NCBI GenBank assembly: GCA_016867315.1
Contig: VGJV01000002.1
Location: 1-49,385 of the forward strand
From: Candidatus Liptonbacteria bacterium
GTDB lineage: Bacteria > Patescibacteriota > Minisyncoccia > UBA6257 > 2-01-FULL-56-20
DNA length: 49,385 nt
Reading direction: 5' to 3'
Numbering within the stretch: the stretch's first letter is position 1; each line of letters starts with the position of its first letter. This document shows, one piece after another, positions 1-47,112 of this stretch. Both the position numbers and the translations under genes were made by a program. Under the pieces are notes generated by a model. The model was not told where the DNA came from and made no database searches. It was given only the letters and a program-made list of their open reading frames with translations.

Positions 1-5
1 TTAAA

Positions 6-97
6 AGCCGCAGTTTGATGCAGGCGCTCGTTTTTTGGATGCTCAAGGAACAACTCCAGCTTAAAAGCTGGAGTTTTAGTCAAGTTCCTTGACATAA
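6..97. repeat. Palindromic scaffold element, copy 1 (5'-truncated by the window edge; apparently lacks both double-hairpin inserts)
   Basis: Matches 16040-16067 plus 16118-16181; stems tcaaggaac/gttccttga and aactccagct/agctggagtt. Confidence 0.9.
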
Positions 98-219
98 TAA
101 TGGACTCTATTGATCCAGAAATCACTCCAATTATTTCTGCTGCTCATACAGTAGGTATGGATGGAATCGTGACTTTTAGCGCAGTCAGAATTTATGATAT
201 TGATGCTTTGATGCCCTGA

Positions 220-4514: not shown

Positions 4515-4527
4515 TCTCCACAATCAC

Positions 4528-4694
4528 AAAAACGATGCGCCACCTCGGCTTAAACCTCGAGGATGTGAATCCTCGATGGCAGTCAGGAATCTAAGATTCC
4601 TGATGAGCCGAGGTTTGTTGCAGGCGCTCGTTTTTGGAGATGCTCGGGAACCACCACACCTTGAAAGGTGTGGTTTTCATCGGTTCCCGACATA
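4528..4694. repeat. Palindromic scaffold element, copy 2, with one double-hairpin module (4555-4605)
   Basis: Stems aaaaacga(t)gcgcc/ggcgctcgttttt, acctcggct/agccgaggt, tcgggaacc/ggttcccga, accacacct/aggtgtggt; homologous to 15960-16180. Confidence 0.92.
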
Positions 4695-4697
4695 AGA

Positions 4698-15627: not shown

Positions 15628-15903
15628 ATGGCAGAAATTCGAGATAATTTTGATATATTCTTTAGAAGAAAGCCAGCCTTGCTCCTAGTAGCATTAAAGA
15701 GGCTTGCAAGAGCAAGATATGGTAGTGTCCTTGCAAAAGAAGTTGATTGTACCTACAGCCACGCCGTCAAGATATTACAATCTCTCGAAAAACTAGGTCT
15801 AGTCATGTTTGAGAAGAAAGGCCGCATCAAGCTTATCAAGCTCACCAAAAAAGGCCAGGAAATCGCTGATAATATTGAGAATGTGAAACGCCTTGTTGGT
15901 TAA
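15628..15903 (+). CDS. Winged-helix DNA-binding protein (MarR-like)
   Basis: LAKEVDCTYSH, GLV, KKGR..LTKKG. Confidence 0.85.
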   Translation: MAEIRDNFDIFFRRKPALLLVALKRLARARYGSVLAKEVDCTYSHAVKILQSLEKLGLVMFEKKGRIKLIKLTKKGQEIADNIENVKRLVG

Positions 15904-15959
15904 TTAATTCTAAAATTAATTGGTTATATCTCTTTTTTAAACATCTATTCTTAAAAATC

Positions 15960-16180
15960 AAAAAAACGATGCGCCACTGCGGCTTAAACCTCGAGGATGT
16001 GAATCCTCGATGGCAGTCAGGAATCTTAGATTCCTGATGAGCCGCAGTTTGATGCAGGCGCTCGTTTCACCAAGAACATTGTTCTTGGATGCCATCAAGA
16101 ATAGAAGATTCTTGAGGTTTGGATGCTCAAGGAACAACTCCAGCTTAAAAGCTGGAGTTTTAGTCAAGTTCCTTGACATA
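15960..16180. repeat. Palindromic scaffold element, copy 3, with two double-hairpin modules in opposite orientations (15989-16039, 16068-16117)
   Basis: Homologous to copies 1 and 2; abuts the tRNA-Lys 3' end with a 3-nt gap. Confidence 0.92.
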
Positions 16181-16183
16181 AAA

Positions 16184-16405
16184 TGGCCTCGAGGGGATTT
16201 GAACCCCCGACACCTGGATTTCCTAAGAAACCTACGGTTCGTCAAGGACGAAGTCCTTGAGCACGCTCAGGAATCTTTGATTCCTGACGTCTTGTGGGTC
16301 AACTTCCCTCAAGAAAATGCCTTATGTCCCCGAGGAGGGTTCATAAGGGTAACGTAGTTCCCTTATTAAGAGTCCAGTACTCTGACCGGGCTGAGCTACG
16401 AGGCC
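16184..16405 (-). tRNA. tRNA-Lys(CUU) with a 147-nt intron at 37/38 (16220-16366)
   Basis: Acceptor GGCCTCG/CGAGGCC, D arm GCTC/GAGT, anticodon stem CTGGA/TCCAG with CT-CTT-A, T loop GGTTCAAATCC. Confidence 0.9.
16241..16289. repeat. Double-hairpin module, GCACG-linker subtype, inside the tRNA-Lys intron
   Basis: gtcaaggac-gaa-gtccttga gcacg c tcaggaatc-ttt-gattcctgac; same layout as 18493-18548. Confidence 0.8.
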
Positions 16406-17880: not shown

Positions 17881-18459
17881 ATGGACTTTGATTCAGTTAT
17901 AGACAAGAGGCACTCTGTAAGAGCTTTCAAAAATAAGAAAGCAAGTTGGAAGCTCGTATTAGATGCAATTGATGCTGCAAATCAAGGGCCATTTGCAGAT
18001 AACATAAACCCGCTTAAGTTTCTGATAATCGAAGAGCAGTCTACAATTGACAAGGTCTCGGAGCTATCAGGACAACTATGGATAAATGAATCAAGTATTT
18101 TAGTCATAGTCTGTTCAGATGATACTCATCTTGAACACCTTCACGGCCAGCGTGGAAAGAGATATTCAAGGCAACAATCTGGGGCAGCCATAAATACCTT
18201 CATTCTAAAATTAACAGACCTAGGCCTCTCATCATGCTGGGTAGGGGCATTCACAGACGATCTAATAAAGCAACATCTCAAGATTCCAGGACATATTGAA
18301 ATAGAAGCAATCATCCCTATTGGTTATGAAAAGACAAAAAGCAACAAAAGAAGGAAAAGACCTTTGGAAAACACTCTCAATTGGGAATCCTGGGGTTCCA
18401 CAAAGCGCCCCTCATTATTCAACGAAGATGCTCCCGACCCAGATTTGATAGAGTCGTGA
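17881..18459 (+). CDS. Nitroreductase family protein
   Basis: RHSVRAF, GLSSCWVGAF, IIPIGY. Confidence 0.88.
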   Translation: MDFDSVIDKRHSVRAFKNKKASWKLVLDAIDAANQGPFADNINPLKFLIIEEQSTIDKVSELSGQLWINESSILVIVCSDDTHLEHLHGQRGKRYSRQQSGAAINTFILKLTDLGLSSCWVGAFTDDLIKQHLKIPGHIEIEAIIPIGYEKTKSNKRRKRPLENTLNWESWGSTKRPSLFNEDAPDPDLIES

Positions 18460-18463
18460 TCAC

Positions 18464-18618
18464 TCCTGCAGATGAAACTCAACTTTCATCCTGTCAAGAA
18501 CTTTGTTCTTGAGCACGATCAAGAATTGCGTTAAACCAATTCTTGACGCATCAGAGTTTTTGAAAAAAATTACTGATGGGATGATATTATTCCTGCAGAT
18601 GAAACTCAACTTTCATCC
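18464..18618. repeat. 28-bp direct repeat (18464-18491, 18591-18618) enclosing a hairpin cassette
   Basis: tcctgcagatgaaactcaactttcatcc occurs twice; double-hairpin module at 18493-18548 lies between. Confidence 0.9.
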
Positions 18619-18976
18619 CATCGGGATCCTTAGTGAATATGGCAGTTCCACCGTATCCATCATCAGTTATTCCATTATCTTCCATTTCTATTCCCATTTT
18701 ACGTAAGGTTCCCTCTATTTCATCCAAGTCTTCTCTGGTATCAATCTTAAAAGCCCAGTGATTTAGTCCTAGTTTCTCAGGATCAAAAGTCTCGTCTTTT
18801 CCAATTACCAATTGAGAATTCGCGAGCCATAGTGAAAACATTCCATCGGTCAAACCACAAACATCTTCCTCATCATGCATTACTTCCATCCCACATACAT
18901 CTCTGTAGAAATCACGTGATTTAGAAATATTCCGCACAATCAAAGTAATATGATGAACTCCAGTTGTTGTAACCAT
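18587..18976 (-). CDS. VOC/glyoxalase family protein
   Basis: HHITL.V, FY..V.G, H.AF, F.DPDG..VEF. Confidence 0.9.
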   Translation of the reverse strand: MVTTTGVHHITLIVRNISKSRDFYRDVCGMEVMHDEEDVCGLTDGMFSLWLANSQLVIGKDETFDPEKLGLNHWAFKIDTREDLDEIEGTLRKMGIEMEDNGITDDGYGGTAIFTKDPDGMKVEFHLQE

Positions 18977-25737: not shown

Positions 25738-25898
25738 GTACCACAATTTCTTTTAGAAGAGATTTGTTTCATGCATGATGCTGAACAAGTACATAAATTC
25801 CCAATTTAGATTGGAAAGCAACTAGAGGAAATAGGTAAATTAAGAAGTAATAATTCAAAGGCATTTTCATTTAACCATCCTTCTCTTAGACTATCACT

Positions 25899-26005
25899 AA
25901 AACGATGCGCCACTTCAGATTCATTATAGAAGAAGTTAATCTTAAATGGCAGTCAGGAATCTTAGAATCTTGATGAGGTGTGTTTTTGGTCGATTCTCAA
26001 CATAA
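25899..26005. repeat. Degenerate palindromic scaffold element, copy 4
   Basis: Retains aaacgatgcgccac, tggcagtcaggaatcttag and ttgatgag; abuts the aspS stop. Confidence 0.75.
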
Positions 26006-27400: not shown

Positions 27401-27462
27401 GCCAAATCCAAATAAACGCGCTTTTTAACCCTTTTCTTTCAGAAAACCTTACTTTGTTAAGA

Positions 27463-27513
27463 TCTCAAAGTCTATCGGACTTTGATGGCCATCAAGGATT
27501 AATATCCATGAGG
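27463..27513 (-). repeat. Stand-alone double-hairpin module upstream of aspS
   Basis: Minus strand AAA|CCTCATGGAT-ATTA-ATCCTTGA TGGCCA TCAAAGTC-CGATA-GACTTTGA. Confidence 0.7.
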
Positions 27514-27547
27514 TTTCCTAAATCTTATTTTTAACCCTTATGCTACA

Positions 27548-34150: not shown

Positions 34151-34282
34151 CGGGTCCAGGAGGAATCGAACCCCCGTTACAGCGTTCCTTCGCTCCTTTC
34201 CAAAAGGGAGGTTGAACAAAAAGGAACAGTCGGGTTCCTTATACTCCGAAGCGCTGCGTTCTATCCACTAAACTATGGACCC
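34151..34282 (-). tRNA. tRNA-Arg(UCG) with a 60-nt intron at 37/38 (34186-34245)
   Basis: Acceptor GGGTCCA/TGGACCC; anticodon stem CAGCG/CGCTG; BHB central helix CUUC/GAAG with 3-nt bulges GGA and GAA. Confidence 0.92.
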
Positions 34283-34328: not shown

Positions 34329-34738
34329 CTAAGGCAATAATTTCAGACTTTCATCTTTCTTCAAGGCATAGTTCTTTCTCGAGTAATAAAGAGACACCAA
34401 CTCGTTTACTACCCAAGTCACTGCCAGCAACAGTGCGAAGAATGCTCCTCCGATGGGTGTAGCGTAGGCAGGCTATCACTTTCAAGATAACTCAGTATGC
34501 CTGCGATTACTCCGACAGTAGTTATCAAACGTAAAGAGCCGATAGAATTGCGAGTGCTTTCAGCACCCATCTCACCAAATCTGGCAATAGTCGCACCAAG
34601 ATAATTGTCAGTCATCTTCCAGAGTTCCTTGATATAGGACAAAGTATCTTCAAGAGTCTCATATTTATATGAGAATATTTGGTCAAGAGTTTCATCAATT
34701 TTCTGCGTATTTGCAATCTTTCCTCTTGTCCTCAGATA
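34329..34738 (-). pseudogene. Displaced duplicate of the 3' end of the 35519 gene, frameshifted
   Basis: 410 bp matching 35519-35929, with about 7 substitutions and a 1-bp deletion by manual comparison. Confidence 0.9.
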
Positions 34739-35297: not shown

Positions 35298-35522
35298 TTG
35301 CCAGAAAAGCCCGTACAATTCTCTGAAGGAACAAAACTGCTCCTTGATATATACAGTAGAATTGTAGCAATTGCAGACCAAAATGACGCATTGAAAAGAA
35401 GAAATGATAAATATGGCCCTATTGAGATGAAATTGCCAAGATCTAAGGAAATAATGCTTGCCAACAACAAAGATCAAGAATATCTTATTAAAGAACTATA
35501 CGGAGCAAGAATTTTGACCTAA
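35298..35522 (+). CDS. Possible small protein or gene fragment
   Basis: 74-aa ORF with TTG start, converging on the 35519 gene. Confidence 0.3.
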   Translation: MPEKPVQFSEGTKLLLDIYSRIVAIADQNDALKRRNDKYGPIEMKLPRSKEIMLANNKDQEYLIKELYGARILT

Positions 35523-36427
35523 GGCAATAATTTCAGACTTTCATCTTTCTTCAAGGCATAGTTCTTTCTCGAGTAATAAAGAGATACCAACTCGTTTACT
35601 ACCCAAGTCACTGCCAGCAACAGTGCGAAGAATGCTCCTCCGATGGGTGTAAGCGTAGGCAGGCTATCTCTTCCAAGATAACCCAGTATGCCTGCGATTA
35701 CTCCGACAGTAGTTATCAAACGTAAAGAGCCGATAGAATTACGAGTGCTTTCAGCACCCATCTCACCAAATCTGGCAAGAGTCGCACCAAGATAATTGTC
35801 AGTCATCTTCCAGAGTTCCTTGATATAAGACAAAGTATCTTCAAGAGTCTCATATTTATATGAGAATATTTGGTCAAGAGTTTCATCAATTTTCTGCGTA
35901 TTTGCAATCTTTCCTCTTGTCCTCAGATAGGAAGCCATCTGGTTTATTCTGCTCTCTATCAGCTTTATTGTCTTTTGATAAGAGTCTAATTGCGCCCTGA
36001 ATCTCTTAATATCTCTTCCTCTTATTTTGCTTTTTTCTTTTATGTCAGCTATTTCAGTCCATATCATTCTATGTATTCTAAGATAAGAATGTAATTGTGA
36101 CTTGAATTCTCTAAAAAAAATCTGCGCTTCCACTATCTGTCTTATCTTCTCAAGGGGAGCCTTGCTCACTACCAATATTATCCTTTTAGTCTTGTAGACC
36201 GTGGCTTGGCTAGATTCTAATACTGAATATGAATGTAGGCCTCTTTCACTAAAAAATCGAGATACTTATCCTTGTTAGCATTTTTAGCGATTAATATAAA
36301 TGGAAGCAAGGTATGTATCTTTGCCATTTCCTTGGGAACAGGGGCACCTCTGCTGAAAAGATATTTTAGAGCAGGAGAAAGCCTCCTCTACAAAACTACT
36401 TAATCAAAAAATTCTCTAGTAAGGTTT
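35519..36427 (-). pseudogene. Disrupted membrane-protein gene (intact 3' part 35519-36175)
   Basis: Protein-like reading continues upstream in another frame (LSPALKYLFSRGAPVPKEMAKI), with a frameshift near 36250-36270 and an in-frame TAG near 36389; 5' end lost at the junction. Confidence 0.6.
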
Positions 36428-37549
36428 CTACCCCTCCCCCGGCCCGCCGAGCGTAATATTCTCCGGCTCAAAGAATACTCTCCGATCGCCTTCTTCCACC
36501 ATTCCCACTTCCTTGAGTTCGTATCCTGCCTTTTTTCCAATTGTGAGTACCCGTTGTACCTCCTGCGGAGGTAGAAAGATATAGTACCCCGCTCCCCAAT
36601 TGAACGTCTTCAAACAATCTTTAAGCGCCACTCCTAACTCTCGCATAAACTGCATCAAAGGATGCACCGGCACCCACGAGTGAATCCGATAGTTATACGG
36701 CCGCTTATCAAACGCAATTTTCCCCACGCCATCTCCCGTCCCCGGAAGCAAGGCATGAATATCCACCTTCTCCGCGAGTAAGGCTTCGACGAGCGCCACA
36801 TACGACCGCGTGGGAATAAGAATTTCTTCTCCAAGCGTTTTGCCGTTCGGCAATTTCGTCAAAAACTTTTCCGGCAATTCCATCGCTTTTTTGATCGCGA
36901 GGGAAATCCCGTTCGAATGAATCCCCGAAGAAGTAACCGCAACGATCCGGTCTCCGGGCACAAGTTTCTTCCCGGTAATCAAATTTTCTTTGGGCGCGAT
37001 GATTCCCGTGGTACACCCCGAAAGGGTCGCGACCATCTCGACGGGGGGCTTCGGATTCACAATATAAGTAACCGAGGCGGACTCCCCCGCAGGCATCGCC
37101 ATCCCAACTTCTTCGCAAATTTTGAGAAACCCGGCCGCTAAATCCCTCGCCCGGTTCTCGTCCGAGTACCACGCACTGTTCGAGGCTTCGATCTGATCGG
37201 TAAAAACCACCGGCAACGCTCCCTGCGCCAAACAATCGTTTACCGTCATCATCGCGGTATCGATCGCAATCGCATCGTAGTAAGTTTTATGTTTATCTCC
37301 GGAGAATTGCCGCATCCATTCCGCAATCCAGTTTTTATTTCCTAAATCTTCCTGCGTCTGGCACCAGATGTGCGATTGGTTTCCTCGATATTCAAATACC
37401 GCCCCGTGCGCCCCCGTCGCTTCTTCGGTAATAAACACTCCCCGCTTTTCCGGGAACTTTAAAGTTTTCCGCCCCGCGCGCACCATGTGCTGCTTGAAGG
37501 GCTCCATCTGGACATAGTCCACTCCCGCTTTTGCGTATTCGCTCTGCAT
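36428..37549 (-). CDS. purM: AIR synthetase PurM, divergent
   Basis: YAKAGVD, NDCLAQGA.P, GE.A, SSGIHSNG.SL, TFNWG.G; purine operon context. Confidence 0.85.
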   Translation of the reverse strand: MQSEYAKAGVDYVQMEPFKQHMVRAGRKTLKFPEKRGVFITEEATGAHGAVFEYRGNQSHIWCQTQEDLGNKNWIAEWMRQFSGDKHKTYYDAIAIDTAMMTVNDCLAQGALPVVFTDQIEASNSAWYSDENRARDLAAGFLKICEEVGMAMPAGESASVTYIVNPKPPVEMVATLSGCTTGIIAPKENLITGKKLVPGDRIVAVTSSGIHSNGISLAIKKAMELPEKFLTKLPNGKTLGEEILIPTRSYVALVEALLAEKVDIHALLPGTGDGVGKIAFDKRPYNYRIHSWVPVHPLMQFMRELGVALKDCLKTFNWGAGYYIFLPPQEVQRVLTIGKKAGYELKEVGMVEEGDRRVFFEPENITLGGPGEG

Positions 37550-37583
37550 AGAAAGTAAAAATTAGAAAATAGAAAGTAGAATG
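37550..37583. repeat. Heptamer array (AGAAAGT-like), inverted partner of 38502-38533
   Basis: AGAAAGT AAAAATT AGAAAAT AGAAAGT AGAATG. Confidence 0.6.
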
Positions 37584-37611
37584 ATTAGAACTAGAATAGC
37601 ACTGTCCCAAG

Positions 37612-37648
37612 AAAAACGGAAAGCGGCGCGAGGTTACCCAAGCGCCGC
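37612..37648 (-). terminator. Intrinsic terminator of the protease-like gene
   Basis: GCGGCGC/GCGCCGC stem followed by TTTCCGTTTTT on the minus strand. Confidence 0.6.
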
Positions 37649-37667
37649 CCGTGTTTAACATTGCACT

Positions 37668-38444
37668 TCAATGCAACTTGATTTTGACCGAGGTCATAAG
37701 CGCAAATCCACCACTGCGCGGTGTAATGCCTAATCTGCGCTGCATCTCTCCATCTATGAAGGTGAGACGACTCATGATGAATGTGGAATCGCGGCACACA
37801 AAGCTCGAACCGCTTTCGGCTGGAGTAGGATCGTAATCCATAATGAGAAACTTCTCTGCAGTAGGATCAGTGGAATCGACAGACGTTCCAATCACGTTAT
37901 ACCGTTCTCCGGTAATTTGAGATTGTGCAATAACCGACTCTGTGATTCTGGCAAAGTCAGCTTTTCCCGTTACATCTGTCTTTCCAAACCACAATTGTGG
38001 TATTAGCCGTGCTTCACCCACCATCGCAACCGCCGCATCATTCTTGGGAGAAGGAAGCGACACGCTTTGAATTGCCCATACACGCCCCGAAAAATTTTCC
38101 GGCAGGACAATCGTGACGTAGTAGAAACCCGAACGCAAGAAAACATGAGCGGATGTAACCACCAGTTCAGGACCATTCGCGCCCATAAACGCCGTCCCCG
38201 AGGCAGTCCAAGTTCCCGCAATATCATTAGAATCAACTCCTTTGGGATTCATGGAAATATGAACGGGAAAACGATCAGGCAGGAGAGGGTCCTTCAAGCG
38301 ATGCGCCATAAGGTAGTGGTAACGCTTGATGATATCCGCACTCGTAGGAATGGGATTCTGAATTTTCACCGGGAACACCCAGAAGATGGCGATCGAGATG
38401 CAGATTGGAATCAAAACCAATAAAAAAACATATTTAGTTTTCAT
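37668..38444 (-). CDS. Membrane-anchored trypsin-like serine protease (putative)
   Basis: N-terminal TM; TSAHV (His), NDAAV (Asp), AESGS (Ser) in triad order; ATG 38444 follows the promoter. Confidence 0.6.
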   Translation of the reverse strand: MKTKYVFLLVLIPICISIAIFWVFPVKIQNPIPTSADIIKRYHYLMAHRLKDPLLPDRFPVHISMNPKGVDSNDIAGTWTASGTAFMGANGPELVVTSAHVFLRSGFYYVTIVLPENFSGRVWAIQSVSLPSPKNDAAVAMVGEARLIPQLWFGKTDVTGKADFARITESVIAQSQITGERYNVIGTSVDSTDPTAEKFLIMDYDPTPAESGSSFVCRDSTFIMSRLTFIDGEMQRRLGITPRSGGFALMTSVKIKLH

Positions 38445-38456
38445 AGAGCAGTGGAA

Positions 38457-38485
38457 AGAATACAAATTCAGCCTCTGAATGTCAA
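38457..38485 (-). promoter_or_regulatory. Bacterial sigma70 promoter
   Basis: TTGACA-17 nt-TATTCT upstream of ATG 38444. Confidence 0.7.
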
Positions 38486-38501
38486 GAGGCTATTTATAAA
38501 A

Positions 38502-38533
38502 CATTCTATTTTTTACTCTCTATTTTCTACTCT
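38502..38533. repeat. Heptamer array, inverted partner of 37550-37583
   Basis: Minus strand AGAGT AGAAAAT AGAGAGT AAAAAAT AGAATG. Confidence 0.6.
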
Positions 38534-39047
38534 CTTCTGCAAGATATTTCTCAAACCCCTCCTCTTCCAATTTCTGCGCTTTTTCTAACACCGCTTTCTC
38601 TAAATTCTCCCGATAAGTATCAAGCTGTTCTTGCAACTTCTTATCCCCTGTCGCAAGAATCCGCACCGCGAGGAGTCCCGCATTTTTAGCTCCGTTGATC
38701 GCCACCGTCGCCACGGGAATCCCACCGGGCATTTGCACAATCGAAAAAAGTGAATCGATCCCTTTCATTGTAGAAGTTTTAATAGGCACCCCGACGACCG
38801 GCAACGAAGTCATCGACGCCGTCATCCCCGGCAAATGCGCCGCCCCTCCCGCGCCCGCGATAATGACTTTAAGTCCCCGCTCCGCCGCGGACTTCGCATA
38901 CTCATTCATTCGATCCACAGTTCGATGAGCCGAGACCACCGTCACTTCGTGCGGCACGCCGAATTCCTCGAGCACTTTCGCCGCCTCTTGCATCACCGGC
39001 AAATCCGAATCCGAACCCATAATGATCCCTACGAGTGGTTTATCCAT
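38520..39047 (-). CDS. purE: N5-CAIR mutase PurE
   Basis: [37 protein letters not shown]. Confidence 0.97.
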
Positions 39048-39882
39048 AATTGCTCTTAATGTAATCCATTCCCGCCGCTTTGAATATCCCATCGAAATTC
39101 GAGAGGATTTTTTTCTCTCCATTCGAAAAAGTCACCATAAGATGCACAAACACATTGGGTAGTTCTGGCATTTCCGGATTCATCAGCCGCGCCTCGAATG
39201 TAAATGCGCACGATTCGGGAATTTTGAAAGTTTCAAGCTCATTAATATACACCCGCTTCGAGCGAATAGTTTCTCGCACTTCTTCAAAAGAATTACCGAA
39301 TGAAATCGGCTCCCCATACGAACCGGGTACCGTGTGTCCCAAATTGGTTTTTAATGGATCGTGATTCGTCGTCATCCACCCGATCACCCGCCACTGACTT
39401 GCAAAATGTTGCATCGCCGCCGCAAATAATTCTCGGAAACTCATTCCTACCTCTGCGAGTGCTGCTGCGTCATATATCATCTTATAAGTATTCGAAATAT
39501 GCTCCCGAACTTTCTCATCTGTCCCCCGATACACGGTGCATCCCAGATCTCCGATCATCCCTGTAGCCTTGTCCACCGTCGAAGCATAAAGAATACTTAC
39601 CGACTCCGCGGTCATTGGCACCGATTCTTGCGGAGCTGACTCCGGCTTTCGAAGCGTCTCGAATTTCAACCGATCATAAGGAGCTTCTGCCGCAAGCACT
39701 CCTATTCCCCCTGCGGGAGGGTCATACCACCCGGTCGGATAAAACTGCGGATATTGCGAAATATTCGCGAGAATCCGATCCCGCATTCCCGCCTCGGAAA
39801 TTCCCTCTACGCCTTTGAGCGCTTCGGCCATAATATCTCCAGTGAGCTTCCGCGATTCAATAATAGTCTGAATCCGATCCAT
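39040..39882 (-). CDS. M24 (pita-bread) fold-like protein of unknown function
   Basis: SE..MRD, GDLG.T.Y.G, LGH and FTFE pattern reminiscent of M24 peptidases/creatinase. Confidence 0.55.
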
Positions 39883-39890
39883 TAGTTTGA

Positions 39891-41051
39891 TTATATAGAA
39901 ATTTTACTCCTCGCTTCCTCTGCTCTCCGACGCGCCTCTTCTATAGTTTCTCCGATGGCGGTCACATGCCCCATTTTTCGCTCGGGCTTCGTTTCTTGTT
40001 TGCCATAGAGATGCACGCGCACACCGGGCACTTTATGGGCCTCCTCCACTCCTTTTGGCTCCGCCGGGCCGCTCCGGTCTCCTAAAATATTCACCATCAC
40101 TGCCGCCGGCACATTCATCTCCGCAGATTCAAGCGGCATTCCGGTAATCGCCCGAATATGCTGCGTGAACTGCGACGTAAGGCACGCCTCAATCGTAAGA
40201 TGTCCGCTGTTGTGCACCCTCGGCGCAATTTCGTTTATCAAAATTTCATATCCCTCGCCTCCGCTCGGGATTCTTGATTCCTTTGGAACCAAGAACATTT
40301 CGATTCCGAATACGCCTACTCCCTTGAGTTCTTGGAGGACCCGGCTTGCGACGCGCTGCGCCTCCTTGCGCGCCGCCTCGCCCACAGGCGCCGGCGCGAT
40401 CACCACATGGCAAATATTATTGCGGTGCATGGTCTCCACGGGCATGTAGGAAACAATCTCGCCCGTGGTGCCTCTCGCGACCACTACCGAAAGTTCTTTC
40501 GTGAACGGCACCCACTTTTCTACATAGCACGGGGACTTCGATAACTTTTGAAAGCCCTTTTTAATTTCCTCCTCCTTAGTTACGCAAAAATTTCCACGCC
40601 CGTCATACCCGCCCTCCCGCGCCTTGAGCACGAAAGGGTACCCAAAACTCTTTGTTACCTCCCGTATTTCCTCTTCCGAATGTACCGAAACAAAATCGGC
40701 GGTAGGAATTCCCGCCGCACGCAAAAATTCTTTCTGCCGCAATTTGTCTTTGATAATCTCCAAAGTCTCGGGCGAAGGATTCACGCTCTTCCCCTCCGTC
40801 ATAAGCTCCTTCAAAACTTCGTGATTCACGTGCTCCAATTCAAAGGTAATAAAGTCACTCTGCGTGGCAAGTTCTCGAATCGCCTTCGCGTCTTTAAAAC
40901 CTGCGACAATCTGCCCATCTGCAACTTGTGCCGCGGGACTCCCCGGCGTGGGATCGAGTACCACGACACTAAACCCCAATGCATGCGCCGCCATCGTGAG
41001 CATCCGCCCCAATTGTCCTCCGCCCACGATCCCGATTCGCTTCCTGTTCAT
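39891..41051 (-). CDS. purK: N5-CAIR synthetase PurK
   Basis: GGGQLGRM, GYDGRGN, NEIAPRVHNSGH, YGK...RKMGH. Confidence 0.97.
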   Translation of the reverse strand: MNRKRIGIVGGGQLGRMLTMAAHALGFSVVVLDPTPGSPAAQVADGQIVAGFKDAKAIRELATQSDFITFELEHVNHEVLKELMTEGKSVNPSPETLEIIKDKLRQKEFLRAAGIPTADFVSVHSEEEIREVTKSFGYPFVLKAREGGYDGRGNFCVTKEEEIKKGFQKLSKSPCYVEKWVPFTKELSVVVARGTTGEIVSYMPVETMHRNNICHVVIAPAPVGEAARKEAQRVASRVLQELKGVGVFGIEMFLVPKESRIPSGGEGYEILINEIAPRVHNSGHLTIEACLTSQFTQHIRAITGMPLESAEMNVPAAVMVNILGDRSGPAEPKGVEEAHKVPGVRVHLYGKQETKPERKMGHVTAIGETIEEARRRAEEARSKISI

Positions 41052-41076
41052 TGCCTATGACTATACCGGAAAAGCA

Positions 41077-41108
41077 AAGAGGCTGAAAGGAAATCCCTTC
41101 AGCCTCTT
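41077..41108 (-). terminator. Intrinsic terminator hairpin
   Basis: aagaggctgaa/ttcagcctctt 11-bp stem followed by TGCTTTT on the minus strand. Confidence 0.6.
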
Positions 41109-41119
41109 GGCATGAATGG

Positions 41120-41590
41120 CTAAATACTGATCGTGGGAGCTTCTTGAAGAAATATCACGACAGTGCGGATAACCTTTTGGGCAGTGAATTCCAACTGCCC
41201 TTCTTCATTGGCATAGACCAAATGAAAAATGGGGTGCTGTAAAAGGCGCGGAAATTGGGCCGCCGGATCTTCCCGCAACCAAGCTTGGATCACGCGACGT
41301 TTATAATCGGGAAACATTTCCCGCAATCTTCGTTCTCGCTCTGCAAGCGAAGCGCGAATAAATATCCGCAATGTTTTGTCTCCCTTCTCCGTCAGCAAAT
41401 CCAGTGTTCTGGCTTCTTGAGGACTTACCTCCATAGCTACTTGCGCAGAACCCGCAAGTGAATCCTGCACCATCCCAAAAGGATGTCCGTTCCTCTCCAC
41501 GCAGCGAACTATGGGAAAGGCTTCCTGAATTCGTTTCAAAATCTGTGTTTTCCCCGCTCCTCGGCAACCGGAAATAGTGATAAGTTTCAT
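41120..41590 (-). CDS. P-loop NMP-kinase-like protein
   Basis: Walker A GCRGAGKT; IFIRAS..ER..RL lid-like motif. Confidence 0.6.
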   Translation of the reverse strand: MKLITISGCRGAGKTQILKRIQEAFPIVRCVERNGHPFGMVQDSLAGSAQVAMEVSPQEARTLDLLTEKGDKTLRIFIRASLAERERRLREMFPDYKRRVIQAWLREDPAAQFPRLLQHPIFHLVYANEEGQLEFTAQKVIRTVVIFLQEAPTISI

Positions 41591-41694
41591 ATCCTCCCGC
41601 TCGTTGGTTTGGTTTTTACAAAATAGCGAAAGCCACTACTCTCAAAAAGTGGCCCTACAACTGCTTCTAGCCTATCTCTCTTTTTGCGCCTTCG

Positions 41695-43008
41695 TCAAAC
41701 TCGATTCAAAGATTTCACCCCAATGTCTTTTCTATAATAAACGCCTTCAAAATGAATTTTCGCCGCTGCCTCGTAGGCCTTTTTGAGCGCATCCTCGAGC
41801 GTAGCTCCAATCGCCGTTACTCCCAACACCCTTCCCCCGGAAGTAACTAATTTTCCATTCTCCATCTTAGTCCCTGCGTGAAACACTACAACATCGGACA
41901 TTTTTTCCGCCTCTTCGATTCCCGTGATTTCCTTTCCCTTTTCATAATTGCCCGGATACCCTCCGCTGCAAAGGATGACGCAACACGCAAATCCGGAATT
42001 CCATGCTATAGAAACATTTTCCAAAGTGCCCTCGATACACGCTTCGATAACATCGAGCAAATCGGTCTTCAAAAGGCGCATATAACTCTCGCATTCCGGA
42101 TCGCCAAACCGAGAATTAAATTCAATCGTCTTTATCCCGTGATCCGCGTCAGCGGATTTTACGGGATTCGACCCCTCCGCAGTCATCATAAGCCCCGGAT
42201 ATAAAAGCCCCTGAAAAGGAGTCCCGGCTTTTCGCAAAGCCTCGAGTGCCGGAGCCACTACCCTCTCTGCCACAATTTGCATATTCTGCGCTCCCACCCA
42301 CGTAAGCGGCGCGATAGTACCGATACCGCCGGTGTTGGGTCCCTTGTCTCCCTCGTAAATCGCCTTGTGATCCTGCGACGGCGGGAACATCACAAATGTC
42401 TTCCCATCCGTAAACGCATGTGCTGAAAACTCCTCTCCTTTCAAGAATTCTTCGATCACCACCCGACTCCCCGACTCTCCAAACACTTTTTCCACCATAA
42501 TTTTTTTGAGCGTAGCTTCTGCTTCTTCGAATGTAGCCGCAATCGTTACGCCTTTCCCCAATGCCAACCCATCAGCCTTAATCACAATCGGCAAAGATTG
42601 ATTCTTCACGTATTCCAAGGCCTTCTCATAATTATCGAAAGTTTCAAATTTCGCGGTGGGAATCCTATTCTCCTGCATAATTTTTTTAGCAAATCCCTTC
42701 GAAGCCTCGATTTGCGCCGCGGCCTTCGTCGGTCCGAAAATCTTTAACCCTCTCGCGGTAAACGCGTCCACGATCCCCATCGCCAGCGGATCGTCCGACG
42801 CCACCACCGTAATATCTATTTTCTCATCGAGGGCGAATTCAATAAGTTTCGGAATATCCGTTGGGGCAATTGGCACGTCTTGGGCCACATTGCCCGTGCC
42901 CCCGTTTCCCGGCGCGATATACAGCTTCGTGACGCGTGGCGACTGCGCGAGCTTCCACGCAAGCGCATGTTCCCGCGCATAATTTCCCACCACAAGTACT
43001 TTAGCCAT
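41695..43008 (-). CDS. purD: Phosphoribosylamine-glycine ligase PurD
   Basis: REHALAW, PGNGG, KADGLA.GKGV, GPNTGG, EFNSRFGDPE, GGRVL. Confidence 0.97.
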   Translation of the reverse strand: MAKVLVVGNYAREHALAWKLAQSPRVTKLYIAPGNGGTGNVAQDVPIAPTDIPKLIEFALDEKIDITVVASDDPLAMGIVDAFTARGLKIFGPTKAAAQIEASKGFAKKIMQENRIPTAKFETFDNYEKALEYVKNQSLPIVIKADGLALGKGVTIAATFEEAEATLKKIMVEKVFGESGSRVVIEEFLKGEEFSAHAFTDGKTFVMFPPSQDHKAIYEGDKGPNTGGIGTIAPLTWVGAQNMQIVAERVVAPALEALRKAGTPFQGLLYPGLMMTAEGSNPVKSADADHGIKTIEFNSRFGDPECESYMRLLKTDLLDVIEACIEGTLENVSIAWNSGFACCVILCSGGYPGNYEKGKEITGIEEAEKMSDVVVFHAGTKMENGKLVTSGGRVLGVTAIGATLEDALKKAYEAAAKIHFEGVYYRKDIGVKSLNRV

Positions 43009-43645
43009 TCGAATTTAATTTATAGACGTAATATGTAAACCCATTCTTACCTTTTCTCTTTCCGACTTCAAGCGGCGTCAAACCATATACTCTCGCCAAC
43101 CGCTTAATTTTTCGCGTATCCCCGAATGATGACCAGCAAATAAAGCCTCTCCCTCCTTCCCTAAGATGCTCCGGCAAGTGTTTCAAAAACTTCTTTACGG
43201 AAACATGTCCTGCATCCCAAAAACTGATTTCGTGACTTCGCTTCGCCTGATGATCGGTGAACGGCGGATTGAACGCGATCACATCGAATTTTTTCTTGAT
43301 TCCTCCAAACACATCCTCTCGCCGCACCTCTATATTCAAATTGAGAAAGCTGCTATTCCGTTTCGCGTTTGCTACCGCCGCCGGATTTTTGTCTGTCGCG
43401 AGCACATAATGAGCTCCGTGCTTTTTTGCATACAAAGCCACGAATCCGGTTCCCGTACCTATGTCCCACAAATCCTCTCCTTTCTTGAGATCGAGCACGC
43501 TGCAAAGAAGCTCTGTATCCGTGCTCCCTTGATAGACCTTCGGCAGTACAAAATAATTAATACCCGTACTCTTCTTAAGAAACGGCCGACGTTCTGCCAT
43601 TCTCTTTAGAGATTCTGCCTGAAGCTTTAAACTTTCTGCGCTCAT
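43001..43645 (-). CDS. Class I SAM methyltransferase (HemK/PrmC-like)
   Basis: DIGTGTG motif I; FNPPF motif IV. Confidence 0.85.
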   Translation of the reverse strand: MSAESLKLQAESLKRMAERRPFLKKSTGINYFVLPKVYQGSTDTELLCSVLDLKKGEDLWDIGTGTGFVALYAKKHGAHYVLATDKNPAAVANAKRNSSFLNLNIEVRREDVFGGIKKKFDVIAFNPPFTDHQAKRSHEISFWDAGHVSVKKFLKHLPEHLREGGRGFICWSSFGDTRKIKRLARVYGLTPLEVGKRKGKNGFTYYVYKLNSNG

Positions 43646-43651
43646 CTGATA

Positions 43652-44434
43652 TTATCCGTGCGGAAATAATTCTATCGCTTTTTGTTTCGCTTCTTCCAAG
43701 ATTTTTTCTTCCCCAGGCCAAACAAGCGACGTCTCCCGCACGAGTTCCATCACCCCGTCAGTAGATCGGGCAGCCTTCCACCCCTCGGGCACTGCCCGAT
43801 TCACTGCGGGGCTTTCGCTTCTCCTCGCAAAACTCGCCACGGTCTCAATTTGCACTTCATATTCCGCGGGAAGCACTCGCCCCTGCAATCCCTCGGGGGT
43901 ATCTTCGGGCAAAATCGGCACGCGTTGCACTCCCACGACCGCCCCTTTGTCATACTCCGCCGCCACCCTGTGCGCGGTAGCTTCCGTCCAGAAATCCCGA
44001 TTCACTGCCCGCACAAAAAACAGTCGCGCTGCACTCACCCGCTTTCCATACATTCCCTGTCCGCCGAAATCCAACCGCCCAGGGTCTAACGGCCCCGGAT
44101 GCTGATTCACAATTCTCCCCTCAAAAGCTTTAATGACATTCTCCGGAGTTTTCACGAGCCACCCATACTGCCCCACAAAGTCCACCTCTCGTGCACGGCA
44201 CTCTTTTATAATCGCCTCCCCGAATTCTTCCCGCGAGGCAAAACTTTTAGGCGAGAGCACTAACACATCTTTCTCCGGTACTCCGGCTTTTTTCGATCTC
44301 TCAATCCCTCCCGCCTCCGACTTGCTCGCAATCACACACCCGATCTCCACTCCCGTGAGTCTCCCCGATTGAGTGGCCCGAATAATAGCTTCGGCAGTAG
44401 TCCCCCCGCCGGAGATAAGCAAAGCAATTTTCAT
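43652..44434 (-). CDS. purN: GAR transformylase PurN
   Basis: LISGGGT, N.HP, FGG.GMYG, T.H.V...YD.G. Confidence 0.88.
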   Translation of the reverse strand: MKIALLISGGGTTAEAIIRATQSGRLTGVEIGCVIASKSEAGGIERSKKAGVPEKDVLVLSPKSFASREEFGEAIIKECRAREVDFVGQYGWLVKTPENVIKAFEGRIVNQHPGPLDPGRLDFGGQGMYGKRVSAARLFFVRAVNRDFWTEATAHRVAAEYDKGAVVGVQRVPILPEDTPEGLQGRVLPAEYEVQIETVASFARRSESPAVNRAVPEGWKAARSTDGVMELVRETSLVWPGEEKILEEAKQKAIELFPHG

Positions 44435-44436
44435 GG

Positions 44437-45861
44437 CTACGAAGTAAACAAAGTCCCCTGCCGCTCGTGCATCACTTCCATCACCCGCACTTCGCGCATG
44501 CGTTCATGAATATCGATCGGATAATCTCCGGTAAAACAGGAAGTATTAAACACCGATCGGGGCAAACGGGTGGATTCGATAAGGCCTCGAAGCGAGAGAT
44601 AATAAAGCGAGGTCGCTCCCAAAAACTTCCCCACTTCTTCCACGGATTTTGTAGAGGCAATTAAATCTTTCTGCGCCGGCGTGTCGATTCCATAAAAATC
44701 CGGGAAAAGAATGGGCGGCGAGCTCACGAGGAAATGCACTTCAGTTGCTCCCGCTTCAAAAAGCGATTTTACAATTCTCCGCGAAGTTGTCCCGCGCACG
44801 ATCGAATCATCGATTAAAATCACCCGCTTGCCGCGCAAAATCTCCGGCACAGGCACGAGCTTCAACTTCACTCCCAAATCCCGCGAGTGCTGATCGGGCT
44901 CAATAAACGTCCGATGGATGTATCGGTCTTTAATAAAGGCGAGTTCCAAGGGAATCCCCGAGGCATGCGCATAGCCTGCCGCCATGGGAACTGCCGTCTC
45001 CGGCACTGGTACCACAATATCCGCCTCGGGCTTATATTCCTTCGCGAGCTGCATCCCGAAGTTCCTCCGCACTTCATAGACCGATCGGCCCATAAAAGTG
45101 CTGTCCGGCCGTGCAAAGTAGACGAACTCAAAAATATCGAAACGCTGCCGCCCAGGCACAAGCTGTTGCGCTCGCACGCCTTCTTTGGTAACCGTGACCA
45201 TCTCTCCCGGCGCTACTTCTCTCAAAAACTCGGCCCCCATCGAGTGAAACGCGCAGGTCTCCGACGCGAATACCACGCCCCCATTCAAAGTACCCATCAC
45301 GAGCGGCCGCACGCCAAATCCGTCCCGCACGGCCACCAGCGCCTCCTTCGTCATCACGACCAAAGAAAAAGCCCCTGTGAAAAAGGGGAATGCTTGCCTC
45401 ACTGCTTCCGGAAGCGAACTACCCACCTTCATGAAATAACCGATCGCCTCCGCCATAAGCTCCGAGTCATTTTTACCTTCGATGGATACATTTCGCGCTG
45501 AAAGAAACTCTTCGAGAAGCTTCACACTGGGCAAATTCCCGTTGTGCGCGAGGGCGAGTGCTCCATCTCGCACGACGACCGGTTGCGCATGCGTCATGCC
45601 AGTGCCTTCGGAAGTCGAATAGCGATTATGCCCGATCGCACAAAATCCCTTGAGGCTCTGAATCGCTTCTTCGGTGTATACCTGGGTCACTAGTCCCAAT
45701 CCTTTGTGAGAACGAATACTTTGCCCGTCTCCCACGGCAATTCCCGAACTTTCCTGTCCGCGATGCTGCAGCGAAAAAAGGCCGAAGAATGATAATCGGC
45801 TTACATCCATACCCTCTCCAAAAATCCCGAAAATCCCACATTTTTCATTCACTTCGTTCAT
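44437..45861 (-). CDS. purF: Amidophosphoribosyltransferase PurF
   Basis: Propeptide then CGIFG, QHRGQ, GHNRYST, HNGN, FEFVYFARPDS, DDSIVRGTT. Confidence 0.97.
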   Translation of the reverse strand: MNEVNEKCGIFGIFGEGMDVSRLSFFGLFSLQHRGQESSGIAVGDGQSIRSHKGLGLVTQVYTEEAIQSLKGFCAIGHNRYSTSEGTGMTHAQPVVVRDGALALAHNGNLPSVKLLEEFLSARNVSIEGKNDSELMAEAIGYFMKVGSSLPEAVRQAFPFFTGAFSLVVMTKEALVAVRDGFGVRPLVMGTLNGGVVFASETCAFHSMGAEFLREVAPGEMVTVTKEGVRAQQLVPGRQRFDIFEFVYFARPDSTFMGRSVYEVRRNFGMQLAKEYKPEADIVVPVPETAVPMAAGYAHASGIPLELAFIKDRYIHRTFIEPDQHSRDLGVKLKLVPVPEILRGKRVILIDDSIVRGTTSRRIVKSLFEAGATEVHFLVSSPPILFPDFYGIDTPAQKDLIASTKSVEEVGKFLGATSLYYLSLRGLIESTRLPRSVFNTSCFTGDYPIDIHERMREVRVMEVMHERQGTLFTS

Positions 45862-45866
45862 GGTAT

Positions 45867-46321
45867 CGATGCGAATATACTAATCTACTAATAATACTAA
45901 TCAAATTAAATTCTTCCGTGTATCAGATTCGATTTTAACAATCCGCACGGGTTTCAAATAACGATTTCTAAAATTAACAAGCAATCCCAGCTTTTTATTT
46001 AGGTTCTGCAAATATCGTTGTGTCTGATAAAAATCTTCTTTGTTCAATAACCGCTTAGACTTAGCCTCAAGAACAATTTTGTCATCAATTAAAAAATCTA
46101 CAATATTGCCCGTCTCGCCTATTGAATATTCTCTCTTGTAAGGCAAGCCAATTTCCTTAAATTTTGCCTCAAGAAAGTCGCAGTACTGCTTTTCTCTTCC
46201 AAACCTTCCCAATTCATTGTGAGCAGCGAAACAAATTCCCGTGATTGTATAAGAAAGTTCTGGATGAATCAGTTTCTGATTCATATTCGCATAATTAGTA
46301 CTCATTCGTATATTAGCATCG
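45867..46321. mobile_element. Putative insertion cassette: GxxExxY gene within inverted repeats
   Basis: CGATGCGAATATACTAAT (45867-45884) matches the reverse complement of 46304-46321 at 16/18; AT-rich interior. Confidence 0.55.
45901..46305 (-). CDS. GxxExxY family protein (PD-(D/E)XK nuclease-like)
   Basis: HNELGRFGREKQY, DFLI...LEAK, Q..RYL, GLLVNF. Confidence 0.88.
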   Translation of the reverse strand: MSTNYANMNQKLIHPELSYTITGICFAAHNELGRFGREKQYCDFLEAKFKEIGLPYKREYSIGETGNIVDFLIDDKIVLEAKSKRLLNKEDFYQTQRYLQNLNKKLGLLVNFRNRYLKPVRIVKIESDTRKNLI

Positions 46322-46326
46322 CTACC

Positions 46327-47106
46327 CTACGCGAAATATTTAACAGCATTCTTAAATATCTGTAACCCAGGCCCTTCTTTCGGCAACGGCTTCCTAGTCC
46401 GCAAAGACTCTTCGCGTAGATATGCCCAGTGAGGCAACTGCGTTGGAAACATCGCTCGCTCGGGATGCGGCATCATCCCCAAAATCTTACCATGCCTCCC
46501 CAACACCCCGGCAATATCCCGGAGCGCGCCATTGGGATTTGCGGGCAAGGCTTGCGTCTCGCATATTTCTCCTTTCACATATTTAAATGCCACCGATTGA
46601 CTCTTCTCTAAAGAATTTAAAAGTGCGTCGCTACCAATATATTTTCCCTCTCCATGGGCAATAGGAACGGAAATACGGGTAATACCTTGAAGCCACGGGC
46701 TCTTCCCTACCGTTTCCAAATCCACCCATCGATCCGTGTATCGCGCGGAGTCATTATACGTGAGCGCGCCTGGCAAAAGTCCTGCGTTCGTCAAAATTTG
46801 GAACCCATTACAAATCCCGATTCCCAATTTATCGCCTTCGAAAAAAGTATCGATACTCGCCGCAAGATGGTTCCGCAACTTGTTCGCATATGCTTTTCCC
46901 GATCCCGTATCGTCTCCATAGGAAAACCCTCCCGGTACTGCGAGAATCTCATAAGACCGGAGCGACACAAATCCATCCACAAGATCGTTCACATGCACGA
47001 CGTCCGCGGTGGCCCCCGCTCGTTCGAATGCGAATTTCGTCTCCTCCTCACAGTTGAGGCCGTAGCCGGAGAATACTATAACTTTAGGTTTGCGAATTTT
47101 TGTCAT
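46327..47106 (-). CDS. purQ: FGAM synthase glutaminase subunit PurQ
   Basis: G.NCE.E, PGGFSYGD, GICNGFQIL, AHGEG, NPNG, GMMPHPER. Confidence 0.97.
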   Translation of the reverse strand: MTKIRKPKVIVFSGYGLNCEEETKFAFERAGATADVVHVNDLVDGFVSLRSYEILAVPGGFSYGDDTGSGKAYANKLRNHLAASIDTFFEGDKLGIGICNGFQILTNAGLLPGALTYNDSARYTDRWVDLETVGKSPWLQGITRISVPIAHGEGKYIGSDALLNSLEKSQSVAFKYVKGEICETQALPANPNGALRDIAGVLGRHGKILGMMPHPERAMFPTQLPHWAYLREESLRTRKPLPKEGPGLQIFKNAVKYFA

Positions 47107-47112
47107 AAGTCA

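Follow-up and report, generated by a model that had tools for sequence, protein, structure and literature searches.

At positions 15989-16117 of a 49,385-nt stretch of DNA deposited as part of a Candidatus Liptonbacteria assembly (GCA_016867315.1, contig VGJV01000002.1, positions 1 to 49,385; hereafter the window), two inserts of about 50 nt, each made of two hairpins, interrupt a larger palindromic sequence, and a second copy of that sequence at the start of the window carries neither insert. The locus raises the question of whether such a small double hairpin is a mobile unit and, if so, of what kind. A preliminary description of the window had proposed a minimal element that nests inside larger palindromes, inserts at AAA^A without target duplication and may be moved by a transposase of the IS200/IS605 Y1 type. 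The reading of the family as mobile, nested and free of duplication proved largely right. It is probable that the locus holds two members of a small, non-autonomous family of DNA-level palindromic repeats, lodged in A/T-rich spots of a host repeat and carried by a clade of Woesearchaeota. Below, the double hairpin is called the module and the larger repeat the host; the assembly containing the window (879 kb) is referred to as G000 and the contig of the window as C2, while other G numbers denote genomes and L numbers denote loci.

The two inserts lie in host copy 3 (15957-16181, + strand, 225 nt), between a winged-helix gene (15628-15903, +) and a tRNA-Lys gene on the - strand. As previously quoted, this copy reads ...GCGGCTTAAA, 51 nt (15989-16039), AGCCGCAGT... 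and, further on, ...CTCGTTT, 50 nt (16068-16117), TTTGG...; the span 15989-16117 is exact and the second insert begins at 16068. The first insert, M1 (+), occupies a position that we call site A, and the second, M2, sits reversed (- strand) in site B, a T-run between two host stems. Host copy 1 (1-97, +), truncated by the contig start, has both sites empty, reading TTAAA-AGCCGCAGT and CTCGTTTTTTGG (TTAAA^AGCC and CTCGTTT^TTTGG). Outside the inserts, the two copies are identical at 28 of 28 positions (6-33 versus 16040-16067) and at 64 of 64 (34-97 versus 16118-16181). Neither insert has a duplicated flank, and the edges are unambiguous, since the terminal bases of each insert differ from the adjoining flank bases. 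The start of the window is base 1 of C2, so that the left flank of copy 1 lies off the contig; the left arm predicted for the empty form is nevertheless present in a full-length empty paralogue (L048:3869), which is 100% identical to window positions 1-100. In addition, contigs of two runs join 15988 to 16040, omitting the 51 nt, at single-copy depth (17.5 and 11.3).

Reverse-complemented, the second insert has the same build as the first, as had been noticed, and the two belong to one family. The module consists of two hairpins placed foot to foot: 5'-XY, stem, loop, stem, one bulged base and Y'X', followed directly by PQ, one bulged base, stem, loop, stem and Q'P'-3'. Each hairpin thus has a 2-bp foot, one bulged base, a stem of 8-9 bp of the form TCRRGRA...TYCYYGA and a loop mostly of 3-5 nt. 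In M1, the order is CC, an 8-bp hairpin, a bulged T and GG, then CA, a bulged G, a 9-bp hairpin and TG. The module begins and ends with the outermost bases of its two 2-bp feet; consequently, in a folded single strand both ends of the module meet at one junction. Two subtypes can be distinguished: subtype 1 has TGGCA(G) in the middle and the ends CC...TG, and subtype 2 has GCACG(C) or GCATGC in the middle and the ends CG...CG or TG...CA. The edges are constant across copies rather than ragged, and the module is a discrete, sharp-edged double-hairpin unit of about 50 nt, in agreement with the preliminary description.

A covariance model, R1, was built from 26 modules of five genomes and several metagenome contigs. 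It finds six strong module loci in the window, all within 4555-27513, and these are all the strong loci of the 879-kb assembly. M1 scores 67.2 bits and M2 59.5 bits (-). Two further copies stand where they had been reported: one at 4555-4605 (+), in site A of host copy 2, which is the loop of the first inner hairpin, one base away from M1 (98% identity, 67.4 bits), and a solo module at 27463-27513 (-), upstream of an Asp/Asn-tRNA ligase gene (52.8 bits). The last two were added by our analysis and both belong to a subtype with CGTC...GACG ends: 16240-16289 (+), in the intron of the tRNA-Lys gene (58.7 and 58.1 bits on the two strands), and 18492-18548 (+), found with R1 between convergent nitroreductase and glyoxalase genes (53.9 bits) and outside the training set of the model. 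The family is therefore present at several unrelated sites. A fixed hairpin grammar recovered five modules in window positions 1-36400; in 200 dinucleotide shuffles it recovered 0.025 on average and never more than one. Folded as single-stranded DNA, five modules of the window have energies between -10.5 and -15.2 kcal/mol and z-scores between -4.5 and -7.2; M1 is at the stable end of this range (-15.2 kcal/mol, z -7.2), and M2 has a z of -4.9.

The hairpins are conserved as pairs. Among the 26 modules, 97.4% of 500 pair cells are Watson-Crick or wobble, and changes on both sides were seen in 17 of 20 pairs, including four foot pairs, a number reached by none of 500 shuffles. When the partners are slid by 1-3 columns, pairing falls to 31-53%. 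The covariation is strictly Watson-Crick, with G-U or U-G in three of the 500 cells and one-sided changes in two, and R1 scores nearly equally on both strands. Near-equal strand scores combined with scarce G-U pairs are the signature of a DNA palindrome, which pairs on both strands, and not of an RNA helix. The host likewise has no bias of strand or gene orientation: relative to the upstream gene, 21 of 40 copies lie on the same strand and 19 on the opposite one (crude open reading frame calls). Taken together, covariation without G-U and random host orientation point to DNA palindromes rather than to RNA.

The larger palindrome in which the modules nest, as the preliminary description had it, is itself a multi-copy dispersed intergenic repeat family with four copies in the window. 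An empty host is about 115 nt long, forms two hairpins and terminates in GACATAA. Its long stem, AAAACGATGCGCC / GGCGCTCGTTTT, surrounds a small hairpin with a TAAA-type loop, and its second stem, TCAAGGAAC / GTTCCTTGA, surrounds a second small hairpin. Among 42 different hosts, from the window organism, G440 and G441, modules were found at three places only. Site A is the loop of inner hairpin 1 (TTAAA^A), site B is the T-run between the stems (CTCGT[T/G]T^TTTGG), where the module is reversed, and site C is the loop of inner hairpin 2 (CCCTAAAG^GGCG). These sites are occupied in every combination, from none to all three, always with the same edges, and modules in them always begin with C[C/A/T]TC and finish with GA[T/G/A]G. 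A fourth host site, TTTGGA^TGCTC, occurs in G448. Host copy 2 of the window (4523-4695, +), with site A filled, differs from copy 3 in each inner hairpin, the changes being compensatory, and the empty form of its variant exists at L069:10002. Copy 4 (25893-26005, +) is decayed (61%) and holds a decayed module at 25941-25975 (19.7 bits, E 0.0033). The orthologous locus of G455 has no host at the position of copy 3.

Outside the window, a scan of public metagenome contigs with one module hairpin gave 70 loci, six of which (GC 0.39-0.40) hold further host copies, their match to the window being confined to the repeats. These loci, of the same or a very close organism, show the host variants of the window both empty and filled: full-length empty hosts are found at L048:3869 and L069:10002, and filled composites at L013:5105 (99.4% to copy 2) and L048:7303 (96.6% to copy 3). 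The hosts at L013:5328 and L048:3414 are mosaics whose two inner arms come from different variants and no longer pair, which is evidence of recombination at the loop. In four lake-water runs, the empty joint 4554->4606 was covered to depths of 477, 274, 112 and 80, against about 18, 12, 5 and 4 for single-copy flanks (summed depth, not copy number), and many run contigs connect a host end to a host start. Both observations indicate a multi-copy family.

Two further observations concern the architecture of the host. At the L103 host, the module of site B is joined directly into that of site C, and loops seem to be recombination points. A minimal host of 88 nt, without the second inner hairpin, stands at the G441 loci L100, L108, L110, L112, L120 and L122; the second inner hairpin accordingly also looks like an insertion into a loop, which would make a third level of nesting.

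A natural before-and-after pair outside the host is provided by the tRNA-Lys(CUU) gene next to copy 3 (16184-16405, -; Rfam tRNA, 45.6 bits), which has a 149-nt intron at the canonical position after the anticodon. The tRNA-Lys intron of G455 aligns with it and lacks exactly the 50 nt 16240-16289, the window reading CAAGA|module|AACCGTAGG and G455 CAAGGAACCGTAGG. The G455 tRNA-Lys shares a contig with the TopA orthologue, as in the window. Filled and empty forms thus differ by the exact length of the module, with no target duplication, at three host sites in several genomes and at one orthologous intron site, which bears out the earlier claim. A hairpin-forming piece of about 31 nt of the window intron (16315-16345) is also absent from the G455 orthologue (alignment A1). 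The window has a second intron-bearing tRNA gene (34151-34282, -), whose intron of about 60 nt contains small hairpins (AAGGAAC...GTTCCTT); ARAGORN missed both genes and Rfam detected both.

Do these sites share a target? The preliminary description had each module that it listed follow AAA on its own strand. This is true of the three host sites A, B and C and of the solo copy at 27463-27513, and fails for the tRNA-intron copy (AAGA^) and for 18492-18548. Read on the strand of the module, four of six distinct sites (A, B, C and 27463) have AAA as the 5' flank, the intron has AGA and the G448 site GGA. The flanks do not bear out a strict AAA^A target; to judge from them, the actual target would be A-rich, single-stranded-looking DNA in loops or A/T runs.

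The modules are carried by several species in tens of copies per genome. A 12-base motif from the 5' part of the host is present in 12 of 40 relatives of G440, in 34 copies down to one, and the reversed control in none; R1 has matches in 20 of the 40. Counted as strand-matches, which correspond to roughly half as many loci, there are 137 in G440, 121 in G448, 68 in G449, 53 in G455 and 52 in G446. In G448, the 121 matches are accompanied by only five exact host 12-mers, its host 5' motif having diverged and many modules lying elsewhere, so that the modules are independent of that exact host form. Of the metagenome loci other than the six described above, most of the 64, on varied low-GC contigs, have no host motif, which indicates that the module family extends beyond the host family. 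A second TC...GA hairpin adjoins the one searched for at no fewer than 27 of the 70, a count that misses modules with stems extending past the TC. A scan of a genome collection gave 11 matches, eight of them in bacterial-titled records; the two inspected (L084 and L091, GC 0.66 and 0.73) have no host structure, and the other six were judged by title only. Thus modules are found in the host, in tRNA introns, in other intergenic DNA and, in G448, in frame inside genes: at L183 the reading frame is open across all 361 nt, and at L182 a class II tRNA ligase has the module in its C-terminal extension.

The enzyme implied by the earlier proposal was sought with the PF01797 (Y1_Tnp) profile, which detected none in G000 and was positive in six of 14 known genomes used as a control. 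Among the 40 relatives of G440, PF01797 occurs in ten. Three of the five genomes richest in modules, G440, G448 and G455, gave no match; they are draft metagenome-assembled genomes, in which absence is not proven. The Y1 gene of G441 encodes an ordinary IS200/IS605 transposase beside a 417-aa open reading frame, and its end hairpins are unlike the TCRRGRA stems. When 13 Y1 loci were scanned with R1, none had modules on both sides; one module lies 3.5 kb away inside a host, and there is one weak match. At L158 (G449:C123:700-900), an array of TC...GA hairpins that ends like the host 3' end splits an IS200-type Y1 reading frame.

How, then, did the family spread? The account that we prefer, a non-autonomous DNA-level palindrome family, would combine two routes. 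New sites would arise rarely, when a folded single strand is inserted at exposed A-rich DNA such as hairpin loops and T or A runs, by a putative enzyme acting in trans. Inside the host, the module would be spread or lost mainly with host amplification and with recombination or gene conversion between copies; the difference between copy 1 and copy 3 may come from either route. Several points weigh against this account. The searches described above identified no enzyme, and each indel may be an insertion or a precise deletion. Across genomes, modules that share a host site resemble one another more closely than they do modules of other sites, a pattern that fits old composite host subfamilies and recombination better than frequent new insertion. 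No locus-specific presence/absence polymorphism was shown in the four runs, whose contigs break at the repeats, and a function would also account for a host frame kept across species. Finally, two copies outside the host sit in larger insertions. The module at 27463-27513 is part of 106 extra nt relative to the syntenic G455 locus, bounded by a 10-nt direct repeat (GGGTTAAAAA), and that at 18492-18548 is part of an extra segment of about 126 nt bounded by a 31-46-nt direct repeat (18459-18504 / 18586-18631). These direct repeats point to a second, different route of spread, and their unequal lengths (10 and 31 nt) fit poorly with one transposase of fixed stagger.

The strongest competitor does without transposition for the filled and empty pair of the window: in a scheme to which we give a real but less than even chance, the host subfamilies are old, and recombination or gene conversion copies or removes modules exactly. 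The mosaic hosts with a crossover at the loop, the direct junction of site B to site C at L103, site-specific module lineages common to three genomes and the copying of whole composites to other loci (L013:5105, L048:7303) all speak for it; given composite copying and exchange among some tens of host copies, much of the filled/empty pattern of the host needs no new insertion. It leaves unexplained, however, why homologous modules occupy three different sites of the host as well as a tRNA intron and further places outside the host, and it describes a mode of spread rather than an origin. A more speculative scheme, which we regard as rather doubtful, treats the modules in their palindromes as replicators moved by a non-Y1 activity, either a structure-specific archaeal replication or repair function or a so far unrecognised recombinase, which would join the folded double hairpin into loops, A/T runs, introns and genes; the same activity, acting on ordinary duplex DNA, might leave the unequal flank repeats of 10 and 31 nt. 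Slightly less probable still, and in our judgement unlikely, is that the modules are miniature elements of the IS200/IS605 or REP/RAYT type (repetitive extragenic palindromes, REPs, with their REP-associated tyrosine transposase, RAYT), whose single strands a Y1 transposase of the HUH group cuts and pastes 3' of AAA. The edges without duplication, the hairpins with a bulged base and the insertion into loop-like A-rich DNA would suit such an enzyme, and PF01797 is commoner in relatives with at least five module matches (7 of 14) than in the others (3 of 26), which is a hint only, as these genomes are kin and not independent. Against it stand the lack of PF01797 hits in G000 and in three module-rich draft genomes (137, 121 and 53 matches), the unrelated end hairpins of the G441 element, the absence of modules flanking any of the 13 Y1 loci on both sides and an array that interrupts a Y1 frame. 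The edges of IS608 reportedly lie farther from the hairpin feet than those of the module (2 nt), which also counts against this scheme. Among 172 archaeal genomes, moreover, only the IS200-type subclass of Y1 enzymes is recorded, according to the accessible text of the survey (PMC6006769). With nothing specific in its favour, the HUH idea is not supported.

Two other explanations have less to offer. Host and modules could form a structured RNA in which the modules are optional arms, and this RNA would be either a multi-copy non-coding RNA or a 3'-end element. The host frame kept across species, the strong covariation, the T-run at the end of host stem 1 and the module within a transcribed intron are what one would expect of an RNA; the near absence of G-U pairs, the equal fit of the model to both strands, the random host orientation and the in-frame copies within G448 genes are not, and this reading appears improbable. 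At the gathering score, an Rfam scan of the window and of 20 metagenome loci matched no family but tRNAs; a match to isrC was dropped at 20.4 bits versus a threshold of 39. By eye, C/D box, H/ACA and K-turn readings of host and module were dropped as well, the required GA pairs and guide pockets being absent. A bulge-helix-bulge intron was rejected by inspection: both bulges of the module are 1 nt long and on one strand, and its edges meet at one junction, whereas such an intron has two 3-nt bulges on opposite strands, 4 bp apart, at the edges. We give even less weight to the idea that the short forms are derived, through slippage across folded hairpins or as an assembly artefact at a contig end. 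Stable hairpins favour deletion, copy 1 does begin at base 1 of its contig, and the low-GC 36 kb of the window is possibly misjoined to the remaining contig. But slippage is disfavoured, as the preliminary description had left to be checked: no direct repeat is available at the module edges, and the empty site B retains all six T, where slippage between the TTT runs would leave three. As to an artefact, filled and empty forms occur in independent assemblies (JGI contigs and two GTDB genomes), and the empty form is the majority form in the four runs.

Some details of the copies outside the host are worth recording. In the repeat 18459-18504 / 18586-18631, the glyoxalase 3' end is present twice, once as the true gene end and once abutting the stop codon of the nitroreductase gene, and the glyoxalase gene of G455 terminates like the distal copy. 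From this arrangement it looks as if the segment was inserted into overlapping gene ends that were rescued by target duplication. The copies of GGGTTAAAAA (window 27401-27547) bracket 96 nt including the solo module. The distal one precedes the ATG of the Asp/Asn-tRNA ligase gene by 24 nt, the expected position of the TATA box of a leaderless gene, and resembles the TATA region of that gene. At the metagenome loci L039, L043 and L053, the same double hairpin stands between a TATA-like box and the start codon of the orthologous gene; compensatory changes in its first hairpin mark it as an old, retained copy.

Several known classes of repeats resemble the modules in part. REP doublets and REPINs are likewise short, mostly intergenic palindromes in tens to hundreds of copies with paired hairpins as the unit, covarying stems, no target duplication and persistence across related species; with six loci in 23 kb and up to 137 strand-matches per relative genome, the modules are also a high-copy palindrome doublet. 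They differ in lacking the conserved 5' GTAG (their starts are CCTC, TCTC, CGTC, TGTC and TTTC; alignment A3), in having abutting hairpins (0-6 nt apart) where those of REPINs are spaced, and in that no counterpart of the single-copy RAYT (Y1) gene flanked by repeats was found in G000, G440, G448 and G455 or at the 13 Y1 loci. The accessible REPIN/RAYT literature is bacterial, whereas the modules belong to an archaeon. The class of CGTC-tagged REPs, bacterial families that include Rickettsia RPE-4/6 and Neisseria dRS3, has stems of 8-9 bp and loops of 4-5 nt and consists mostly of dimers, some 1-2 bp apart; some are nested in other palindromes, some lie in genes, and no dedicated transposase is given in the accessible text (Di Nocera et al. 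2013, PMC3733652). Compared with that text, the modules share the 8-9-bp stems and the lack of a linked transposase, are always dimers and have loops mostly of 3-5 nt; CGTC...GACG ends occur in the subtype of 16240-16289 and in two G440 copies (L136 rows, A3), while the main subtype has CCTC/CATC. The in-frame modules of G448 (L183 and L182) also recall the Rickettsia palindromic elements.

Other comparisons are looser. Palindrome-associated transposable elements (PATEs), derived from IS200/IS605 and, in the sources accessible to us, known in archaea, similarly have a hairpin at each end and insert without duplication beside a short motif. They are larger and share their end hairpins with a full-length insertion sequence of the same genome, which is not so in G441 (one insertion sequence inspected), and the module edges lie at the hairpin feet. 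A classical miniature inverted-repeat transposable element makes a target duplication of fixed length, whereas the modules have none at four kinds of site and unequal repeats of 10 and 31 nt around the two larger insertions. An integron attC reading was dropped, as housekeeping genes stand between the copies. Mitochondrial double-hairpin elements, reportedly treated in work on Allomyces, also pair two neighbouring hairpins in about 50 nt and are scattered through intergenic DNA, introns and variable regions in fungi, algae and sponges; as far as the accessible accounts go, their mobility too is deduced from presence and absence, with no enzyme known, but they are organellar, have no sequence relation to the modules and lack a host repeat with fixed sites. 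We found no description of such repeats in DPANN archaea or Woesearchaeota in the literature, subscription journals and supplementary files aside. On this comparison, the family would best be described as palindromes of the REP-doublet kind, found here in DPANN archaea, whose multi-copy host is defined and whose sites are exact to the base; REP/REPIN doublets, and CGTC-type REPs above all, are their nearest known counterparts.

The assignment to Woesearchaeota rests on the part of the window in which the repeats lie. GC content is 0.39 in positions 1-36400, about 0.50 in 36401-49385 and 0.49 in the rest of the assembly, with a sharp break near 36.4 kb. The low-GC part encodes archaeal Met- and Asp/Asn-tRNA ligases, L15e, topoisomerase I, TFE, TFS, ScpB, FtsZ and GatB/E. 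Some of its genes have distant second copies elsewhere in the assembly (25-46%), among them MetRS (36%), FtsZ (37%), a GatA-like gene (39%) and AspRS (46%); L15e, TFE and TFS occur in the low-GC part only. Its TopA is 65-74% identical to those of genomes reached via the host pattern and 27% identical to the other topoisomerase-like gene of the assembly, which places the repeat-bearing part in that clade of Woesearchaeota. A search with MetRS over 400 genomes of the phylum gave a best identity of 50% (the set included one unpublished genome, G194, on which no claim rests). A host search in 40 relatives of G000 gave no match, a misleading result given that the low-GC part of the window comes from a different clade. 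C2 may hold a very large transfer or be a chimera of two organisms. C5:1-3000, the one further piece of G000 with low GC, was rejected as the leftward continuation of the window. Direct repeats at 34329-34738 and 35519-35929 (about 410 nt covered, 98-99% identical, 1190 nt apart) adjoin the tRNA gene at 34151-34282, just before the GC break.

In practical terms, repeats of this kind fragment assemblies of these small genomes and can mislead binning. Their biological interest is wider. REP-like repeats are classic in bacteria, and the enzyme that mobilises the CGTC type has never been found. The modules offer clean natural before-and-after sites in the form of three host positions, an orthologous tRNA intron and in-frame gene copies. 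If the more speculative scheme of replicators moved by a non-Y1 activity were true, they would represent a previously undescribed route of DNA movement in DPANN archaea. In any case, the module is a well-defined 50-nt substrate with base-exact edges, and the availability of both module-rich and module-poor genomes makes it a suitable starting point for seeking the missing enzyme or repair route.

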